Source: Escherichia coli (GTDB taxonomy: Bacteria > Pseudomonadota > Gammaproteobacteria > Enterobacterales > Enterobacteriaceae). From it: a stretch of 64,000 nt of DNA. A model generated the notes under the pieces. It was not told the origin of the DNA and made no database searches. It saw only the letters and a list, made by a program, of their open reading frames with translations. Positions 1 to 62,752 of the stretch are shown piece after piece. Position numbers and translations under genes: made by a program. Where the stretch lies: NCBI RefSeq assembly GCF_050320075.1, contig NZ_CP190018.1; one strand, 5' to 3'. The first letter of the stretch is position 1. Each line of letters starts with the position of its first letter.

Positions 1-922
1 CCTGAATGAAACAGAGCAGCAACGTTCCCCATAAGGCCATCGTCAGGTAGGGGCTTATACCGAGAATATTGAAGCCGCTTTCAATAATTTGCAGAAGAAA
101 CAGCGCCAGCACCATACCAATTATCCGCCCGCTGCCGCCGTCCGGATTAACCCCGCCGAGTACTGCCGCGAGGATTGACACCAGCAAGTACGATTCGCCA
201 TAAGAGGCCTTAGCCGAGTTGAGTTTCGACATCATCAAAAATGCCGCTACCGCACAAAGCAAGGCGGAAATGACATAAACCCAAATCAGCACCCGACGAG
301 TGTTAATGCCGGAGTAAAGTGTTGCTCGTTCGTTAGAACCAATCAGATAAATGGATTTACCGAGCGGCGTTTTCTCCAGCAATATCCACAGCCCCAGCGC
401 CACTGCGGCAAACAACCACATCGGTAGCGGAATACCGAACCACTGTGCATGATTCAACCACAGCACCCATGAGGGATAATTGGCAATGGCGCTACCGCCT
501 GTCACCAGAATATTTACCCCTTTGAGCAACGTCATCATCCCGAGTGTTGCAAGAATTGGCGACACTCGAATACCAGCAATCAATACGCCGTTACATAAAC
601 CGATTATCACCGCCGCGCCAGCGCCCGCCAGCAGCGTAGCGACAACCGTAGCAATACCCGGTGGATACTGAGTCGCCACCCACGCCATCACCAGTGAACA
701 GGCGTTAGCAGTGGCTATAATTGACAAGTTAATGCCACCGCAAAGCATGGTCACCGCCATAGCCAACGCCAGAATGCCCAGCACGGGCATTTGCGAAGCG
801 ACGGACTGGAAATTACTTATCGACCAGAAAATCTCCGGCATAGTAATGCTGAACGCGGCAACAGTTAGCACCAGCAGGCCGATCAAGTAAAACTCAACGT
901 TATTACGCCACGATTTTTTCAT
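1..922 (-). CDS. Sugar ABC transporter permease (second permease, 3' part runs off the window start)
   Basis: Hand translation of the minus strand from ATG at 920-922 gives MKKSWRNNVEFYLIGLLVLTVAAF... with multiple hydrophobic helices, open to position 1. Its start overlaps the stop of the upstream permease (ATGA). Confidence 0.6.
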   Translation of the reverse strand, partial: MKKSWRNNVEFYLIGLLVLTVAAFSITMPEIFWSISNFQSVASQMPVLGILALAMAVTMLCGGINLSIIATANACSLVMAWVATQYPPGIATVVATLLAGAGAAVIIGLCNGVLIAGIRVSPILATLGMMTLLKGVNILVTGGSAIANYPSWVLWLNHAQWFGIPLPMWLFAAVALGLWILLEKTPLGKSIYLIGSNERATLYSGINTRRVLIWVYVISALLCAVAAFLMMSKLNSAKASYGESYLLVSILAAVLGGVNPDGGSGRIIGMVLALFLLQIIESGFNILGISPYLTMALWGTLLLCFIQ

Positions 923-3415: not shown

Positions 3416-4213
3416 TTAATAAAGTGAGTCGATATTGTCTTTGTTGACCAGTAATACCTTATGGAAACGGATAATTCGCTTATCCATATCTACGTCGGCC
3501 TTACCGAGATTCTCCATTTCTAATCCAGGTTTGATCTCTTCACCCTTCAGCAACGTGCTGGCGACGGCCGCGAGTGCGTAACCTGCAGAGGCCGGATCGT
3601 AAGTAATCCCTTCGGTGATATCACCACTTTTAATCAGTGATGCCGCCTGTGAAGGGATCATCATGCCATAGACTGCGACTTTATTTTTCGCCCGTTTCTC
3701 TTTCACTGCACGTCCCGCGCCAATCGGACCGTTTGAACCAAAGGAGACAACCGCTTTCAAGTCAGGATAGGTTTTCATCAGGTCCAGTGTGGTACGACGT
3801 GAGTCATCCACACTCTCGGCAACCGGCATGCGGCGGGTAACTTCATGCATATCCGGGTAATGCTCTTTCTGGTATTTCACCAGCAAGTCAGCCCATAAGT
3901 TATGCTGCGGCACGGTCAAACTACCCACGTAAATCACATAGCCGCCCTTGCCACCCATGCGTTTCGCCATATGCTCAACATATTCAGCGGCAAATTTTTC
4001 GTTATCAATGATTTCGATATCCCAGTTAGCACTTGGCTGACCGGGGGATTCGTTGGTCAGAACCACAATTCCGGCATCTCGCGCTTTTTTGAATACCGGT
4101 TCCAGCACGTTGGCATCGTTTGGCACAATTGTAATTGCATTAACCTTACGGGCGATTAAATCCTCAATGATTTTAACCTGTTGCGGAGCATCAGTACTTG
4201 AAGGCCCCACCTG
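3416..4213 (-). pseudogene. Periplasmic sugar-binding protein (LsrB/RbsB family), C-terminal fragment cut off by IS150
   Basis: The ORF runs right up to the IS150 left end. The translation continues the N-terminal fragment at 5657..5849 once IS150 and one copy of the CCTG duplication are removed (987 nt, 328 aa). The track start is a GTG created at the junction. Confidence 0.8.
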
Positions 4214-4260
4214 TGTACTGCACCCATTTTGTTGGACGATGAAATGGAATAGCCCCTAAT

Positions 4261-4782
4261 ATGTCAAAGCCAAAATACCCTTTTGAAAAGCGCCTTGAAG
4301 TCGTGAATCACTACTTCACAACTGATGATGGTTACAGGATCATCTCGGCACGTTTTGGTGTCCCCCGAACCCAGGTCAGGACATGGGTTGCCCTCTATGA
4401 AAAACATGGAGAAAAAGGTTTAATTCCCAAACCTAAAGGCGTTAGTGCTGATCCAGAGTTGCGTATTAAGGTCGTGAAAGCTGTGATCGAGCAGCACATG
4501 TCCCTTAATCAGGCTGCTGCTCACTTTATGCTTGCTGGTAGTGGTTCTGTAGCCAGGTGGCTGAAGGTCTATGAAGAGCGCGGAGAAGCTGGTTTACGCG
4601 CGCTCAAGATTGGCACCAAAAGAAACATTGCAATATCAGTTGATCCAGAAAAAGCGGCATCAGCATTGGAGCTGTCAAAAGACCGACGCATTGAGGATCT
4701 TGAAAGGCAAGTTCGATTTCTTGAAACGCGGCTTATGTATCTAAAAAAGCTGAAAGCCTTAGCTCATCCCACGAAAAAGTAA
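4261..4782 (+). CDS. insJ: IS150 OrfA (InsJ), HTH DNA-binding transposase subunit, 173 aa
   Basis: Protein MSKPKYPFEKRLEVVNHYFTTDDGYRIISARFGVPRTQVRTWV... is recognised as IS150 InsJ. The A AAA AAG frameshift heptamer lies at 4743-4749 near its 3' end. Confidence 0.9.
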   Translation: MSKPKYPFEKRLEVVNHYFTTDDGYRIISARFGVPRTQVRTWVALYEKHGEKGLIPKPKGVSADPELRIKVVKAVIEQHMSLNQAAAHFMLAGSGSVARWLKVYEERGEAGLRALKIGTKRNIAISVDPEKAASALELSKDRRIEDLERQVRFLETRLMYLKKLKALAHPTKK

Positions 4783-5630
4783 AAGTACTCAACGAGCTAA
4801 GGCAGTTTTATCCTCTTGATGAGCTTCTCAGGGCTGCGGAGATACCGCGCAGTACGTTTTATTACCATCTAAAGGCTCTCAGCAAGCCTGACAAGTATGC
4901 GGACGTTAAAAAGCGTATTGGTGAGATTTATCACGAGAATAGAGGCCGATACGGATACCGTAGGGTAACGCTGTCTCTTCATCGAGAAGGGAAACAGATT
5001 AACCATAAAGCTGTTCAGCGCCTGATGGGAACCCTCTCACTTAAAGCAGCGATTAAGGTCAAGCGATACCGCTCTTACAGAGGAGAGGTAGGGCAAACCG
5101 CCCCTAATGTTCTCCAAAGAGATTTCAAGGCTACGCGGCCAAACGAGAAGTGGGTTACCGATGTTACTGAATTTGTAGTCAATGGGCGCAAGCTGTATTT
5201 GTCTCCAGTAATAGATCTCTTCAACAACGAAGTTATTTCTTACAGCCTTTCGGAAAGACCAGTGATGAACATGGTTGAGAATATGCTCGATCAGGCATTC
5301 AAAAAGCTTAATCCTCACGAGCATCCTGTTCTGCACTCTGACCAGGGATGGCAGTATCGTATGAGAAGATATCAAAATATCCTTAAAGAACATGGTATTA
5401 AACAAAGCATGTCCAGAAAAGGCAATTGTCTGGATAATGCTGTGGTGGAGTGTTTCTTTGGAACCTTAAAGTCGGAGTGTTTTTATCTTGATGAGTTCAG
5501 TAATATAAGCGAACTGAAGGATGCTGTTACGGAATATATTGAATACTACAACAGCAGAAGAATTAGCCTGAAATTAAAAGGTCTGACTCCAATTGAATAT
5601 CGGAATCAGACCTATATGCCTCGTGTTTAA
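4743..5630 (+). CDS. insK: IS150 OrfB (InsK) integrase-core reading frame, made as an OrfAB fusion by -1 frameshift
   Basis: The -1 frame is open from the slippery site to 5630 and reads ...[32 protein letters not shown]...DVTEF...HSDQGWQY...LKSE (DDE motif). The track lists only the ATG-initiated part, 5025..5630. Confidence 0.85.
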
Positions 5631-5656
5631 CTGTCCAACTTTTTGGGGTCAGTACA

Positions 5657-5849
5657 CCTGTGAGGCATTAACACCAAAGGCTTTACCCGCCTCGACCACA
5701 CCTTCGCCCATGCGATTAAACCACGGCATACCATCGACTTTAGAGATATTCACCACGACTTTTTCCGCTGCCTGGAGCGGCGCAGAAATTAGCGCAGCGC
5801 CTAATAACAGCGAAGACACCATATTGATAACAAAACGTTTATTCATCAT
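5657..5849 (-). pseudogene. Periplasmic sugar-binding protein (LsrB/RbsB family), N-terminal fragment with signal peptide
   Basis: MMNKRFVINMVSSLLLGAALISAPLQAAEKVVVNISKVDGMPWFNRMGEGVVEAGKAFGVNASQVY: signal peptide followed by an LsrB-like N-terminal motif. It ends at the IS150 right end. Confidence 0.8.
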
Positions 5850-19657: not shown

Positions 19658-20245
19658 ATGCCCAAATTGGGGATGCAGTCGATCCGGCGCAGACAACTGA
19701 TCGACGCCACGCTGGAAGCAATAAATGAAGTGGGCATGCACGATGCAACGATCGCGCAGATCGCCCGCCGTGCAGGCGTTTCTACGGGGATCATCAGCCA
19801 CTATTTCAGGGACAAAAATGGTCTGCTGGAAGCAACCATGCGCGATATCACCAGTCAGCTGCGTGACGCGGTTTTGAATCGATTACATGCACTTCCGCAG
19901 GGCAGTGCAGAGCAGCGATTATAGGCGATTGTTGACGGGAATTTCGATGAAACGCAGGTCAGTAATGCTGCGATGAAAGCCTGGTTGGCGTTTTGGGCCA
20001 GCAGTATGCATCAGCCAATGCTTTACCGTTTGCAGCAGGTGAGCAGCCGCCGCTTGTTGTCGAATCTGGTGAGCGAATTTCACCGCGAGTTACCGCGCCA
20101 ACAGGCACAGGAAGCGGGCTACGGCCTTGCCGCGCTGATTGACGGATTATGGCTGCGCGCGGCACTGAGCGGCAAACCGCTGGATAAACCTCTCGCACAC
20201 TCGCTGACCCGTCACTTTATTACTCAGCATTTACCCACCGATTAA
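19658..20245 (+). pseudogene. betI: betI (TetR-family choline-responsive repressor) interrupted by an in-frame TAG at 19922-19924
   Basis: Translation [50 protein letters not shown]...GSAEQRL stops at TAG, then continues in the same frame ([12 protein letters not shown]...[10 protein letters not shown]) to the expected end. The track splits it into 19640..19924 and 19973..20245. Confidence 0.8.
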
Positions 20246-45985: not shown

Positions 45986-46036
45986 TTCAAAATTCGACGA
46001 ATTAACGATATTTGTCTGATTAATAATCAGACCGGA

Positions 46037-46075
46037 TTAATGTTGGTGTATTTATTACACCAGCATTAATTTTCC
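46037..46075 (+). terminator. Probable rho-independent terminator of ykgM-ykgO
   Basis: 14-bp stem TTAATGTTGGTGTA / TACACCAGCATTAA with one mismatch, loop TTTAT, then TTTTCC. Confidence 0.55.
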
Positions 46076-46391
46076 TGGGGATGTATCTTCCTGTTCATTT
46101 AAAGTCAACTGCCTGACGTTTCTCTCCGAATATTCCATTATATTAATGTTGACTTGTTGACCAGGTGCGCCCTGTATGCTGGCATCAACTCTCTTTTAGA
46201 CTGAACACGCCACTCAGTTTCCTCCCTTTGCGACGCAGCCTGCATTTACACTCAAACGGTTAAGATGATAAATGTGGTAAATCTGTTGGTACTGACATAA
46301 AAACGTTTACGCCACAGGAACGGCCTGATCCACCGGTAACCCCATCGCCGACGTTCGAGTGCCAGTTAGAGTAACGCGCACAGATGACTGA

Positions 46392-55771: not shown

Positions 55772-56461
55772 ATGAGCAACCAAGGCGAATACCCCGAAGA
55801 TAATCGGGTTGGGAAGCACGAGCCGCACGATTTTAGTTTGACCCGTCGCGATCTGATTAAAGTCAGCGCCGCAACGGCGGCGACCGCCGTGGTTTATCCT
55901 CATTCTACGCTTGCGGCAAGCGTTCCGGCAGCTACACCCGCGCCAGAGATAATGCCCCTGACACTTAAGGTGAACGGCAAAACCGAGCAGTTGGACGTTG
56001 ATACCCGAACCACGCTACTGGACGCTTTGCGTGAAAATCTGCATCTGATCGGTACCAAGAAAGGTTGCGATCACGGACAGTGCGGAGCCTGTACCGTGCT
56101 GGTCAATGGTCGAAGGCTTAATGCCTGCCTGACGCTTGCAGTCATGCATCAGGGGGCCGAGATCACCACCATTGAAGGCCTGGGTTCACCAGAGAATCTT
56201 CACCCCATGCAGGCGGCCTTTATCAAGCATGATGGCTTCCAGTGCGGCTACTGCACCTCCGGGCAAATTTGCTCATCAGTAGCGGTGCTAAAAGAGATTC
56301 AGGACGGCATTCCCAGTCACGTCACGGTCGATTTGGTTTCCCCTCCAGAAAGAACGGCCGATGAGATCCGTGAACGTATGAGCGGCAACATCTGTCGCTG
56401 TGGTGCATACGCTAACATCCTTGCCGCCATTGAAGACGCTGCGGGGGAGATAAAATCATGA
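55772..56461 (+). CDS. paoA: Periplasmic aldehyde oxidoreductase 2Fe-2S subunit with Tat signal peptide, 229 aa
   Basis: Twin-arginine motif [19 protein letters not shown]. Two [2Fe-2S] clusters ([11 protein letters not shown]..., [17 protein letters not shown]). Confidence 0.9.
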
Positions 56462-59205
56462 AGGCGTTTACCTATGAACGTGTGAACACCCCGGCCGAGG
56501 CGGCACTTAGCGCTCAGCGCGTACCTGGCGCAAAATTTATCGCTGGCGGGACCAATCTGCTGGACCTGATGAAGCTGGAAATTGAAACGCCAACCCACCT
56601 TATCGATGTGAACGGGCTCGGGCTCGATAAGATTGAAGTGACCGACGCGGGTGGGCTGCGCATCGGCGCACTGGTACGGAACACCGACCTGGCGGCTCAC
56701 GAGCGCGTGCGTCGTGATTACGCGGTACTCTCCCGCGCCCTGCTCGCTGGCGCGTCTGGTCAGTTACGCAATCAGGCAACCACCGCAGGTAATCTGCTCC
56801 AGCGCACGCGCTGCCCCTATTTTTACGACACCAATCAGCCCTGCAATAAGCGCCTGCCCGGGAGCGGCTGCGCGGCACTTGAAGGCTTTAGCCGTCAGCA
56901 CGCGGTGGTAGGCGTAAGCGAAGCCTGCATTGCCACCCATCCGAGCGATATGGCGGTCGCAATGCGGTTGCTGGATGCGGTGGTGGAAACCATCACGCCG
57001 GAGGGAAAGACTCGCAGTATCACACTGGCTGATTTTTATCACCCTCCGGGAAAAACGCCGCACATTGAAACCGCCCTGCTTCCCGGTGAGCTTATCGTTG
57101 CGGTGACGTTACCTCCGCCGCTCGGCGGAAAACATATCTACCGCAAGGTGCGCGATCGCGCCTCCTACGCCTTTGCCCTGGTATCGGTCGCGGCGATTAT
57201 TCAGCCTGACGGCAGCGGGCGCGTCGCGCTGGGCGTACTGGCTGTCATTACCGCCAGTAACGCCGGGGCACTCGGCAAAGGCGACAAAAACACCGCCAGG
57301 CTGTTAGGCGGCCCCACTATTGAACACTATCATCAGGCCATTGCGCTGGTAGTGGCCGAGACCTTCGAACAGGCGCGAGCGGCGGCCTCGCTGGTGCAGG
57401 CGCACTATCGCCGTAATAAAGGAGCTTACTCCCTGGCGGACGAGAAACAGGCCGTCAGTCAGCCGCCGGAAGACACGCCCGATAAAAATGTTGGTGACTT
57501 TGACGGGGCTTTCACCTCCGCTGCGGTGAAGATTGATGCTACCTACACGACCCCGGACCAGAGCCATATGGCGATGGAGCCGCATGCCTCGATGGCCGTC
57601 TGGGATGGAAATAAGCTTACCCTCTGGACCTCAAATCAGATGATTGACTGGTGCCGCACCGATCTGGCAAAAACGCTGAAAGTGCCCGTGGAGAATGTGC
57701 GTATTATCTCCCCGTATATCGGCGGAGGGTTTGGCGGCAAGCTGTTCCTGAGAAGCGATGCGCTGCTGGCGGCCCTCGCCGCCCGTGCGGTGAAACGTCC
57801 GGTTAAAGTGATGCTCCCCCGCCCCACTATTCCCAATAACACCACGCACCGCCCCGCCACCCTTCAGCACTTGCGTATCGGTACTGACCAGAGCGGGAAA
57901 ATCACCGCTATCTCACATGAAAGCTGGTCCGGAAACCTGCCCGGCGGCACGCCGGAAACGGCGGTACAGCAAAGCGAATTTCTTTACGCAGGGGCGAATC
58001 GTCATACCGGCCTGCGGCTCGCCATGCTTGATTTGCCGGAAGGGAACGCCATGCGTGCGCCCGGCGAAGCCCCCGGTCTGATGGCGCTCGAAATCGCGAT
58101 CGATGAACTGGCGGAAAAAGCGGGCATCGATCCCGTCGAGTTTCGCATCCTGAATGACACTCAGGTTGACCCCGCCGATCCGACGCGCCGCTTCTCTCGC
58201 CGTCAGCTTATCGAGTGCTTGCGCACCGGAGCGGATAAATTTGGCTGGAAGCAGCGCAACGCCACACCCGGACAGGTACGCGACGGGGAGTGGCTAGTCG
58301 GCCACGGTGTTGCGGCGGGCTTTCGCAATAATCTGCTGGAAAAATCGGGTGCGTGGGTTCACCTGGAGCAAAACGGCACCGTTACCGTGGAAACGGACAT
58401 GACCGATATTGGCACTGGCAGCTACACCATTCTGGCCCAGACGGCAGCGGAAATGCTTGGCGTACCGCTGGAGCAGGTTGCGGTTCACCTCGGCGATTCC
58501 AGTTTCCCGGTTTCTGCGGGGTCTGGTGGACAATGGGGCGCGAATACCTCCACCTCCGGCGTTTACGCCGCCTGTGTGAAGCTTCGCGAAATGATTGCCT
58601 CGGCAGTCGGGTTTGATCCTGAGCAGTCGCAGTTTGCCGACGGCAAGATTACCAACGGTACCCGAAGCGCCACGCTACATGAGGCCACCGCAGGCGGCAG
58701 ACTGACAGCGGAAGAGAGCATTGAATTCGGAATACTGAGCAAGGAGTACCAGCAATCGACCTTTGCCGGGCATTTTGTGGAGGTCGGCGTGCATAGCGCG
58801 ACGGGAGAAGTTCGGGTCCGGCGTATGCTCGCCGTGTGCGCAGCGGGGCGCATTCTGAATCCGAAAACTGCACGCAGCCAGGTCATTGGCGCGATGACTA
58901 TGGGCATGGGCGCGGCACTGATGGAGGAGCTGGCGGTAGATGACCGTTTGGGCTACTTCGTTAATCACGATATGGCGGGGTATGAAGTGCCGGTTCATGC
59001 GGATATCCCAAAACAGGAGGTGATTTTCCTGGATGATACCGACCCCATCTCCTCCCCGATGAAGGCCAAAGGTGTCGGTGAGCTGGGCCTGTGCGGCGTG
59101 AGCGCGGCTATCGCCAACGCGGTGTATAACGCCACCGGTATTCGGGTACGGGATTATCCCATCACTCTGGATAAGCTGCTCGATAAGCTGCCGGATGTGG
59201 TTTAA
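56458..59205 (+). CDS. paoC: Apparent in-frame fusion of paoB (FAD subunit, truncated C-terminus) to paoC (molybdopterin subunit, truncated N-terminus), 915 aa
   Basis: The ORF starts with a CO-dehydrogenase-type FAD-binding domain ([13 protein letters not shown]...), overlapping the paoA stop. Around residue 250 (...[26 protein letters not shown]...) it passes directly into a molybdopterin-subunit sequence that runs to the end (...[14 protein letters not shown]). Junction is near 57228-57235. Confidence 0.7.
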
Positions 59206-59214
59206 GGAGGAACA

Positions 59215-60168
59215 ATGTCATACTCGCTTTTTGACAAAGACGAGCACTGGCATAAGCCAGAGCAGGCGTTTCTCACCGATGACCACCGGGCCATTCTGCG
59301 CTTCGCCGTAGAGGCGCTAATGTCCAGTAAAGGAGCGGTGCTGGTGACGCTGGTGGAAATACGCGGCGGCGCGGCGCGCCCGCTCGGGGCGCAGATGGTG
59401 GTGCGCGAAGATGGTCATTACTGCGGTTTTGTCTCTGGCGGCTGCGTGGAGGCCGCTGCCGCTTTTGAAGCGCTGGAGATGATGGGCTCAGGCCGCGATC
59501 GCGAAATTCGCTATGGTGAAGGTTCGCCGTGGTTTGACATCGTTCTGCCCTGCGGCGGTGGGATCACGCTGACGCTCCATAAACTACGCTCGGCACAACC
59601 TCTGCTCGCCGTGCTGAACCGCCTGGAACAGAGAAAACCGGCGGGTCTGCGCTACGATCCGCAAGCACAATCGTTGGTGTGCCTGCCCACGCAAACCCGG
59701 ACGGGCTGGAATCTCAATGGCTTTGAGGTGGGGTTCAGACCATGCGTCAGGCTGATGATTTACGGACGTTCTCTTGAGGCGCAGGCAACCGCGAGTCTTG
59801 CAGCAGCCACAGGCTATGACAGCCATATCTTCGATCTTTTTCCGGCCTCAGCCAGCGCTCAGATCGATACCGATACGGCGGTCATTTTGCTGTGCCATGA
59901 TCTCAACCGGGAACTGCCAGTGTTGCAGGCCGCGCGAGAAGCAAAACCCTTTTATCTCGGCGCATTGGGCAGCTATCGAACCCACACTTTACGTCTGCAA
60001 AAGCTCCACGAGCTGGGATGGTCCAGGGAGGAGACAGAGCAAATCCGGGCACCTGTCGGGATATTCCCCAAAGCCCGGGATGCGCATACTCTGGCCCTTT
60101 CCGTACTGGCAGAAGTCGCCGCTGTACGTCTCCGTCAGGAGGATTCATGCCTGCCCCCATCGTCCTGA
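59215..60168 (+). CDS. paoD: XdhC-like molybdenum-cofactor insertion chaperone, 317 aa
   Basis: XdhC/CoxI-family architecture. Follows paoC after 9 nt with a GGAGG ribosome-binding site. Confidence 0.8.
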   Translation: MSYSLFDKDEHWHKPEQAFLTDDHRAILRFAVEALMSSKGAVLVTLVEIRGGAARPLGAQMVVREDGHYCGFVSGGCVEAAAAFEALEMMGSGRDREIRYGEGSPWFDIVLPCGGGITLTLHKLRSAQPLLAVLNRLEQRKPAGLRYDPQAQSLVCLPTQTRTGWNLNGFEVGFRPCVRLMIYGRSLEAQATASLAAATGYDSHIFDLFPASASAQIDTDTAVILLCHDLNRELPVLQAAREAKPFYLGALGSYRTHTLRLQKLHELGWSREETEQIRAPVGIFPKARDAHTLALSVLAEVAAVRLRQEDSCLPPSS

Positions 60169-61615: not shown

Positions 61616-62752
61616 TTATTTCAGTTTGGTCTGGAAAAATTGTTCGAACTTCGCGAAAGGTATTTTTCCGGCCACGTTATCGTACAGGTCCACGTGATTT
61701 GCCCCTGGTACCACCACCAACTCTTTGTCTTTACTGCCAACCGCCTTGTAAGCATCTTCAGCAAAATAGCGTGAATGTGCTTTCTCACCGGTCACAATCA
61801 GCGTCGGAATGGTGATTTCACTGGCGTAGCTCAACAGCGGCATATTCATAAATGACAGCGGCATCGTTGCCGTCCACGCCCCGGTAGAGTTAACGGAACG
61901 TTCGTGGAAGCCGCGCGGCATGCGATAGTAGTCAAAGAACTCTTTCAGTACCGGATGAGGATTTGCCGGCAGCGTTTCTGGCAGAATGCGCTCGCCCGCA
62001 CTGACCTTGCCGTTGCTGTCGACATTAATATCATGACCACCGTGAGCGAACGTTCCGCTCTGCGCATCCTTCCAGCGCTGTTCATTCAGATATTGCAGAA
62101 CAGCACGACGGTCGGCGGTAGAATAACGGTCTTTGCCATCCCCCACACCATGGCCCATCGCCCGGCTCATGTCATACATCACGCTGGTAGCTACCGCTTT
62201 AACGCGGGTATCCATCGCCGCGTCGTTCAGCGCCATGCCGCCCCAGCCACAAATACCGAGCAGCCCGATACGGTTGCGATCTACCTCTTTTTGCAGCCCT
62301 AAGAAATCCACTGCCGCGCTGAAATCTTCAGTGTTGATATCCGGTGAGGCGACGTTTCGCGGATAGCCGCCGCTTTCCCCGGTGTAAGAAGGATCGAACG
62401 CCAGGGTAACAAACCCTCGTTCCGCCAGCGTCTGCGCATACAGGCCGCTGGATTGCTCTTTCACCGCGCCAAATGGCCCACTGACCGCAATCGCCGCCAG
62501 CTTGCGATCGCCACGGTCTTTAGGCAGGTAAAGATCGCCCACTAAGGTGATGCCATATCGGTTCGGGAACGAGACTTTACGGTGATCGACTTTCTGGCTC
62601 TCGGCGAACGTTTTATCCCATTTATCTGTCATGGACACAGGGGCATTAGGATTGGTTGAATCAGCATAACTCATTGTCGTGACTCCACTTAATGATGCGA
62701 AAAGCAGCATGGTCGGCATCGCGGTTTTTAGCGTGCGGGTGAAGGCTTTCAT
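61616..62752 (-). CDS. Secreted alpha/beta-fold hydrolase (dienelactone-hydrolase-like), about 378 aa
   Basis: Signal peptide MKAFTRTLKTAMPTMLLFASLSGVTTMSYA. Shares motifs with the cytoplasmic paralogue at 42414..43334 (LGICGWGG, YYRMPRG, VVVPGANHVDLYD). Confidence 0.65.
   Translation of the reverse strand: MKAFTRTLKTAMPTMLLFASLSGVTTMSYADSTNPNAPVSMTDKWDKTFAESQKVDHRKVSFPNRYGITLVGDLYLPKDRGDRKLAAIAVSGPFGAVKEQSSGLYAQTLAERGFVTLAFDPSYTGESGGYPRNVASPDINTEDFSAAVDFLGLQKEVDRNRIGLLGICGWGGMALNDAAMDTRVKAVATSVMYDMSRAMGHGVGDGKDRYSTADRRAVLQYLNEQRWKDAQSGTFAHGGHDINVDSNGKVSAGERILPETLPANPHPVLKEFFDYYRMPRGFHERSVNSTGAWTATMPLSFMNMPLLSYASEITIPTLIVTGEKAHSRYFAEDAYKAVGSKDKELVVVPGANHVDLYDNVAGKIPFAKFEQFFQTKLK

Follow-up and report, generated by a model that had tools for sequence, protein, structure and literature searches.

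In the 64,000-nt stretch of Escherichia coli DNA analyzed here (the window), a single long reading frame stands where the paoABCD locus normally carries two genes, paoB and paoC. This raises the question of whether the frame encodes a periplasmic aldehyde oxidoreductase with its FAD and molybdopterin (Moco) subunits covalently linked, or is the remnant of two broken genes. Comparison with intact loci, domain analysis, and a survey of public genomes indicate that it is very probably a lineage-specific loss-of-function allele of paoABCD, produced by one microhomology-mediated deletion, inherited clonally, and decaying further. What it represents is most likely a common kind of gene breakage confined to one lineage, not a new enzyme design.

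Locus structure and the deletion junction

Gene order in the window (ykgJ-yagU / paoA-paoB-paoC-paoD) is that of E. coli PaoABC (K-12 b0286-b0284; PDB 5G5G). A preliminary description of this DNA had proposed one 915-aa ORF consisting of an FAD part followed by a molybdopterin part, which the ORF list and alignment verify (Table 1). Residues 1–262 of the fusion align to chain B of 5G5G and residues 251–915 to residues 69–732 of chain C, both with few substitutions. In contrast to K-12 PaoABC, the fusion lacks PaoB 259–318 and PaoC 1–75 and places two genes in one ORF. Its start codon overlaps the paoA stop codon as ATGA. The flanking genes paoA and paoD were correctly described as intact (229 and 317 aa). 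The paoA product is the iron-sulfur subunit, the small subunit with a twin-arginine (Tat) signal and two [2Fe-2S] clusters; its RRDLIK motif was identified in the translation of the 229-aa ORF, and the sequence is that of WP_000070677.1. Downstream, the chaperone gene that belongs to a functional PaoABC heterotrimer is present, and its product is the same protein as in strain 266917_2, whose locus is intact (WP_001550665.1).

Table 1. Coordinates of pao features in the window
Feature	Position	Strand	Extent or product	Basis
paoA	55772..56461	+	intact, 229 aa	ORF list; identical sequence in RefSeq, PaoA WP_000070677.1
Chimeric paoB'-'paoC ORF	56458..59205	+	915 aa; PaoB 1–258 + PaoC 76–732	
paoB-derived part	56458..57230	+	codons 1–257 and two bases of codon 258	alignment to intact loci
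Deletion junction	57226..57235	+	GGGCG at 57231–57235 is the single kept copy of a 5-bp direct repeat	
paoC-derived part	57236..59205	+	PaoC 77–732; Gly76 codon supplied by the shared repeat	
paoD	59215..60168	+	intact, 317 aa, Moco insertion chaperone	ORF list; RefSeq WP_001550665.1

A 404-bp gap was the sole indel in the alignment of the window with the intact locus of SC418 (paoB, 957 bp; paoC, 2,199 bp). The same gap was found against K-12, 266917_2, N3, and GF43. The preliminary description had estimated a loss of ~400–420 bp and had given subunit sizes of 229, 318, and 732 aa, and both were accurate; an alignment with no missing segment, which it had named as a possible refutation, was not obtained with K-12 or the other intact loci. 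The sequence removed comprises the C-terminal 60 residues of PaoB (259–318), the ATGA overlap of paoB and paoC, and PaoC residues 1–75. Loss of the PaoB C terminus and of the intergenic segment had thus been anticipated, while the loss from PaoC had been set too low, at the first ~60 residues.

The junction had been placed near 57228–57235 with a GGGCG microhomology, and both position and repeat are correct. In intact alleles, the left breakpoint reads GTCGCGCT/GGGCGGAGTAG and the right breakpoint AAGCGCC/GGGCGTACTGG (the slash marks the break), and the window reads GTCGCGCTGGGCGTACTGG across the junction. GGGCG therefore occurs at both ends of the deleted segment, and one copy was kept. Including the flank, GCGCTGGGCG at the junction and GCGCCGGGCG at the distal site of intact alleles match at nine of 10 positions, giving an extended direct repeat of GCGCYGGGCG with an exact 5-bp core. 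Because only 0.6% of random deletions simulated in the same sequence (100–1,000 bp) reach a junction microhomology of at least 5 bp, the repeat exceeds what is expected by chance. A single RecA-independent, microhomology-mediated deletion between GGGCG repeats 404 bp apart, by replication slippage or illegitimate recombination, would account for this structure.

The reading frame of paoC is +2 relative to that of paoB, so the loss of 404 bp (404 mod 3 = 2) restored the frame. Removal of the PaoB C terminus, the gene overlap, and the start of PaoC in this way left the 915-aa chimera. Such an in-frame outcome is a 1-in-3 event by chance and nothing special.

Distribution and origin of the junction

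A survey of other genomes, suggested in the preliminary description, identified the same junction in 25 of 5,426 complete E. coli genomes (identity of at least 99.9%). The fusion protein was also found on more than 1,100 contig records drawn from NCBI, ENA, and Logan, as the exact sequence (n = 685), a C216Y variant (n = 244), or a 913-aa variant (n = 194). Approximately 3,580 complete genomes, K-12 among them, keep paoB and paoC separate, and the fusion, present in only 25 of ~3,600 pao-bearing complete genomes, is therefore the derived state. About one third of complete E. coli genomes have no pao locus, which is thus dispensable.

The preliminary description had also named a collapsed assembly as a possible refutation. 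In principle, an assembler could create an apparent deletion between short repeats, but the probability of an artefact of assembly or sequencing is negligible here. The junction occurs in 25 independently sequenced complete genomes as well as in the contig records, sub-lineage variants are nested inside the carriers, and 5 bp of repeat is far too little for reads to collapse. Many different laboratories, hosts, and countries are represented among the carrier genomes.

Over 5 kb, all carriers show an identity of at least 99.9%. Two substitutions in the paoC-derived part, T340M and R450W, were seen in none of the five intact alleles compared, and the 461-bp paoC segment containing both has an exact match only in the 26 junction-carrying records. 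The high identity of the carriers and the exclusivity of this segment indicate a single origin of the allele. N3 and GF43 are the closest intact alleles in the 461-bp segment; the view that they differ from it just by three nonsynonymous changes was partly wrong, since L325F is common to both and only T340M and R450W are private to the deletion allele.

Microhomology-mediated deletions can recur, and upstream of ~42 kb in the window, the carriers split into two haplotype groups, a pattern that several independent deletions at the same GGGCG repeats could produce. A recurrent hotspot is nevertheless extremely unlikely given the near-identity of carriers, their exclusive 461-bp segment, and the clonality, in a comparison of seven carriers, of the 22 kb surrounding the locus. 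A recombination breakpoint near 42 kb accounts for the differences upstream. After a single origin, the allele has descended clonally within a lineage of global distribution, to which ST963 (CC38, phylogroup D) belongs; this sequence type is taken from the literature for the carrier CE2050 alone. The 404-bp junction could be used as a clonal marker for this phylogroup D lineage.

Domain losses and predicted activity

Pfam matches on the fusion include FAD_binding_5 (residues 3–220), a truncated Ald_Xan_dh_C (257–320, model positions 41–109 of 110), and both MoCoBD_1 (343–566) and MoCoBD_2 (592–851). CO_deh_flav_C, located at residues 228–301 of intact K-12 PaoB, has no Pfam match in the 915-aa fusion. 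FAD_binding_5 is retained in the paoB-derived part, but of the 74 residues of intact PaoB that match CO_deh_flav_C, just 31 remain. The a/b-hammerhead domain of PaoC is missing its first 42 of 104 residues and model positions 1–40, whereas intact K-12 PaoC matches model positions 1–109. The locus thus encodes neither a separate full-length PaoB (318 aa with FAD_binding_5 and CO_deh_flav_C), of which only residues 1–258 are present, nor a full-length PaoC (732 aa with a complete a/b-hammerhead, MoCoBD_1, and MoCoBD_2). Nor are complete FAD and Moco domains joined via a linker: 60 and 75 residues are cut from two Pfam domains, and there is no linker.

The roles of the deleted segments were judged from Pfam domain limits and general knowledge of the family. 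On this basis, a chimera without more than half of CO_deh_flav_C and without the first 40% of the hammerhead domain is unlikely to fold or to assemble with PaoA, because both domains are cut into. Tat export of PaoA fails when either PaoB or PaoC is lacking (PMC4273604), and since export needs both subunits, periplasmic aldehyde oxidoreductase activity would be expected to be lost in carriers. The intact state of paoA and paoD counts against this loss-of-function reading.

The preliminary description allowed for an inactive product as well as for an unusual linked FAD-Moco subunit. In the second case, the chimera would join PaoA in a complex whose aldehyde oxidoreductase activity is kept or altered, on the model of eukaryotic xanthine oxidoreductases, in which a single chain holds the FAD and Moco domains. 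The FAD-then-Moco order is that of natural single-chain family members (PMC3958847), and the FAD module also precedes the Moco module in Rhodobacter capsulatus XdhAB and the eukaryotic XDH/AOX enzymes (for example, PDB 1FO4 and 4UHW), chains to which the Moco portion of the fusion can be aligned. The frame is open, the start overlap with paoA is kept, FAD_binding_5 and both MoCoBD domains are retained, paoA and paoD are intact, and the lineage in which the allele persists is successful and worldwide. However, natural single-chain XDH/AOX enzymes have complete FAD and Moco domains, a dedicated linker, and Fe-S domains in the same chain (PMC3958847), whereas the join here is a deletion scar inside two folded domains from which 135 residues are gone, with no linker and with the Fe-S clusters on a separate PaoA. 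The in-frame state is expected by chance in one case out of three, descendants carry nonsense changes (Q102* in TUM1886 and Q625* in Br_112) and protein-altering changes only, and both halves are pseudogenes according to PGAP. We therefore consider a working linked subunit very unlikely. The two cut domains, the RefSeq pseudogene calls, and the nonsense changes and indels in the absence of synonymous changes all favor an inactive product.

It is equally improbable that the chimera is made, folds around the missing segments, and forms a two-chain enzyme with PaoA, with tethered FAD and Moco domains. In a related reading, it would be a dominant-negative product with a cost, and selection would favor its silencing. 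A two-chain enzyme, if real, would be a natural experiment in which a heterotrimeric enzyme from the xanthine oxidase family shifts towards the single-chain eukaryotic layout. Molybdoenzyme biochemists would find an active fusion interesting, but the evidence speaks against one.

Sequence change within the clade and annotation

Further changes were identified in the fused ORF among the 25 complete genomes. Missense changes are F239L, C216Y, and V698M. Inactivating lesions have followed the deletion in descendants: Q102* in TUM1886, and Q625* with a 3-bp deletion in Br_112, although the Br_112 assembly looks error-prone and its changes may be sequencing errors. Two indels occur within the clade, both in-frame: this 3-bp deletion and a 6-bp repeat slip present in five genomes. 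No synonymous change was found in the fused ORF in the 25 genomes. The ORF is open in 23 of them and in most of the contig records, as expected at such low divergence even for neutral sequence.

With five protein-altering point changes, two indels, and no synonymous change, the fused ORF gives no sign of purifying selection, at limited power. The ratio of nonsynonymous to synonymous changes (N:S) of 5:0 differs from the 14:80 that intact alleles show (Fisher P = 1.6e-4; 8.5e-4 without Br_112), a comparison weakened by the fact that young within-clone variation is generally rich in nonsynonymous changes, and it is compatible with neutrality (P = 0.17). The clonal 42–64 kb segment of the window was used as a same-genome control. 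Protein-altering point changes are more frequent in the fused ORF (four in 2.7 kb) than in the intact flanking genes (three in 14.9 kb; P = 0.014), and the corresponding N:S values of 4:0 and 3:4 are not significantly different on their own (P = 0.11). The whole 50-kb flank was rejected as a control because a single imported haplotype (236 sites) dominates its 14–42 kb part. Comparison with five intact alleles left only three synonymous and two nonsynonymous changes on the deletion allele's own branch, a count that favors neither reading, and the locus is a recombination mosaic. The changes within the clade are consistent with an allele that is now decaying further in a clonal lineage.

A variant of the loss-of-function reading holds that the chimera is costly and that the secondary nonsense mutations were positively selected to silence it. 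A misfolded 98-kDa protein might take up FAD and Fe-S clusters or strand PaoA in the cytoplasm, in keeping with the block of PaoA export without a partner subunit (PMC4273604). Two of the five point changes are nonsense, against a neutral expectation of ~2% per change. The numbers are tiny, however, the comparison was made post hoc, the doubtful Br_112 assembly supplies one of the two stops, and the ORF is open in most carriers. Selected silencing is therefore unlikely.

The state of the locus is already on record, as RefSeq (PGAP) annotates both halves as partial pseudogenes. A literature search found no earlier description of the allele that mentions paoB or paoC. GenBank and UniRef list the same protein as PaoC, PaoB, or "molybdopterin-dependent oxidoreductase," and this disagreement between two partial pseudogenes and a single named protein is a minor trap for users of the annotation. 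Because the frame was restored across overlapping genes, a full-length "PaoC" or "molybdopterin-dependent oxidoreductase" appears in the output of gene callers outside RefSeq.

Like other bacterial pseudogenes formed by deletion between short direct repeats (microhomology, RecA-independent), this allele is derived, repeat-bounded, and clonal, carries further lesions, and is called a pseudogene by PGAP. There is no essential difference from such cases, and it is unusual only in that the frame was restored across two overlapping genes. Its overall significance is small, but it provides a clean example of a microhomology deletion across two overlapping genes that leaves a long open frame. From the sequence, carriers are predicted to be without periplasmic aldehyde detoxification by PaoABC. 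This predicted loss fits the absence of pao from other E. coli genomes, about one third of the total.

The deletion junction and its product

In a single lineage, paoB and paoC have very probably been pseudogenised by one microhomology-mediated deletion of 404 bp that is in frame by chance and was inherited clonally. The window is identical over its full length (100%) to positions 3895582-3959581 of E. coli YZLc1-3 (NZ_CP123240.1; chicken, China). Alignment of the fused ORF to the intact SC418 locus (paoB, 957 bp; paoC, 2199 bp; ATGA overlap) revealed one gap only, confirming the in-frame internal deletion proposed in the preliminary description, with a length inside the 400–420 bp predicted there. 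paoA and paoD are intact, as had been stated. Intact alleles have GTCGCGCT before and GGGCGGAGTAG after the left breakpoint, and AAGCGCC before and GGGCGTACTGG after the right breakpoint. The window junction is GTCGCGCTGGGCGTACTGG and retains one copy of GGGCG, the microhomology already recognized; with flanking bases, the repeat extends to GCGC[T/C]GGGCG (9/10 match). Junction microhomology of ≥5 bp occurred in 0.6% of random deletions simulated in this sequence, which supports an origin by slippage or illegitimate recombination.

The fused product joins PaoB 1-258 to PaoC 76-732 and is missing PaoB 259-318 and PaoC 1-75; the N-terminal segment of PaoC is gone as described, but its extent is 75 residues rather than ~60, the one point of that description that needed correction. 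The paoC frame is +2 relative to paoB and 404 mod 3 is 2, so the reading frame is restored, a one-in-three outcome for which a special explanation is unnecessary.

Positions of features in the window and of Pfam domains in the intact K-12 proteins
Feature	Position	Strand	Remarks
paoA	55772-56461	+	229 aa, ORF list
Fused paoB-paoC ORF	56458-59205	+	915 aa, single frame, ORF list
paoD	59215-60168	+	317 aa, ORF list
Remaining GGGCG copy	57231-57235		
CGGGCT x2 in paoB	56607-56618		codons 52-55
IS150 copy	4261-5630		
Pseudogene fragments around IS150	3416-4219; 5655-5849		whole stretch 3416-5849
betI	19658-20245		Q89* (CAG>TAG), stop at 19922
ykgL	46020-46245		annotated frameshifted
FAD_binding_5	PaoB 3-220		Pfam
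CO_deh_flav_C	PaoB 228-301		Pfam
Ald_Xan_dh_C	PaoC 34-137		Pfam
MoCoBD_1	PaoC 160-383		Pfam
MoCoBD_2	PaoC 409-668		Pfam

FAD_binding_5, MoCoBD_1, and MoCoBD_2 are kept in the chimera (Pfam), no Pfam match to CO_deh_flav_C is left in it, and its hammerhead (Ald_Xan_dh_C) match begins only at position 41 of the 110-position model. The scar is thus internal to two folded domains, in contrast to the linker-type join of natural single-chain family members. Residue-level roles of the deleted segments were assigned from Pfam boundaries and family knowledge. It is very improbable that the chimera is a working, covalently linked FAD-Moco subunit. PaoB and PaoC enter the periplasm only as passengers of PaoA, which bears the Tat signal, and PaoA itself fails to be exported without PaoB or PaoC (PMC4273604). 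If the chimera cannot fold and assemble, we infer, the cell would be left without periplasmic PaoABC.

Occurrence and origin of the deleted allele

A 5-kb region and a 700-bp segment centred on the junction were queried against 5,426 complete E. coli genomes. The colinear deleted form was found in 26 records from 25 genomes, each ≥99.9% identical. In ~3,580 others the match was split in two pieces with a span 404 bp longer, and the locus was absent from roughly one third; across the species, the pao operon is accessory. In this collection, 12–15 pao-region matches occur on records labelled plasmid. The carriers were isolated on several continents, with chickens, humans, a swan, a cow, a dog, and a gull as sources. 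Contig records number 685 for the exact 915-aa protein, 244 for its C216Y variant, and 194 for a 913-aa variant, under names including PaoC, PaoB, and "molybdopterin-dependent oxidoreductase". A collapsed assembly is excluded by the presence of the same junction in 25 complete genomes and many contigs. RefSeq (PGAP) already flags both parts as partial pseudogenes (paoB "missing C-terminus", paoC "missing N-terminus"); no account of the allele was found in a search of the literature.

T340M and R450W, both nonsynonymous and both in the PaoC part, are absent from all five intact alleles compared (K-12, SC418, 266917_2, N3, and GF43). Exact matches to a 461-bp segment carrying both occur only in the 26 junction-carrying records, a sequence pattern that argues for a single origin and makes repeated, independent deletion unlikely. 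Among the carriers, CE2050 serves as the reference genome for ST963 (CC38, phylogroup D; PMC9429958). We suspect that ST38-type strains are the source of the nearest intact alleles; in 266917_2, which has one of these alleles, the PaoD and MFS proteins match those of carriers exactly. PaoD is 317 aa in the window, SC418, and 266917_2 and 318 aa in K-12, N3, and GF43, owing to a 3-bp indel near the C-terminus (60140-60168) unrelated to the deletion.

Variation and constraint in the fused frame

All differences across the 5-kb region were placed for the 25 complete genomes. Six are identical to the window, eight have C216Y (PaoC numbering; two sequence-verified, six inferred from their one mismatch, which falls in the same 346-bp segment), two have V698M, and one each has F239L (PaoB), Q102* in the PaoB part (TUM1886), and, outside the fused ORF, paoD L157V. 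A 6-bp slip in the CGGGCT tandem repeat left one copy in five genomes (746, SCU-109, CE2050, ECamp083, and MS14384), removing Gly-Leu; the resulting 913-aa variant is a handy marker for a sub-lineage that includes the ST963 reference. Br_112 combines Q625* with a 3-bp deletion and, upstream of paoA, an insertion whose ends resemble IS10; its assembly looks error-prone. This ~1.2-kb insertion (CTGAGAGATCCCCTCATAATTTCCCC...) lies between yagU and paoA (Br_112_kylling NZ_CP182371.1, 1706-2913 of the extracted locus) and looks full of homopolymer errors. The same strain has a second copy of the junction region at the end of the plasmid-labelled, 58.7-kb record NZ_CP182373.1, probably a piece of the chromosome that was misassembled.

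The fused ORF thus has three missense and two nonsense changes, two in-frame indels, and no synonymous changes. Stops make up two of the five point changes, each of them CAG>TAG, a possible sign that silencing of a costly product is being selected; the counts, however, are too low, and one of the stops is in doubt. Intact alleles have an N:S of 14:80 over the same retained codons (contrast with the fused ORF, Fisher p = 1.6e-4; 8.5e-4 without Br_112), and the spectrum of changes in the fused ORF is compatible with neutrality (P = 0.17). Because nonsynonymous changes are generally abundant in young clonal variation, we added a same-genome control using seven carriers and the clonal part of the window (42–64 kb). 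Flanking intact genes (14.9 kb) had three nonsynonymous changes, four synonymous changes, and one frameshift, compared with four protein-altering point changes, no synonymous changes, and one indel in the fused ORF (2.7 kb). The per-base excess of protein-altering point changes is significant (p = 0.014; 0.007 including indels), and the N:S contrast alone in these carriers is not (p = 0.11). These sequence comparisons provide moderate evidence for relaxed constraint, and the frame is already broken in at least one solid case, TUM1886.

Other features of the window and carriers

Among the seven carriers, the 28 kb upstream (14000-42000) forms two haplotype groups, with 236 sites splitting CFSAN061763, MLI106K3, and PRO_A-1407 from the rest, whereas the 22 kb around pao (42000-64000) is clonal with 20 variable columns, implying that recombination within the lineage had a breakpoint near 42 kb. 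The nonsense change in betI, whose product represses the bet operon (choline to betaine), is marked "internal stop" in RefSeq and is private to the window strain among these seven; betI is intact in the other six. IS150 interrupts the substrate-binding gene of an autoinducer-2-type sugar ABC transporter. The ykgL frameshift is annotated in the window strain and in 6/6 other carriers examined. In Ch1 only, a 1-bp deletion (equivalent to window position 62288) frameshifts an alpha/beta-hydrolase gene downstream of the MFS transporter.
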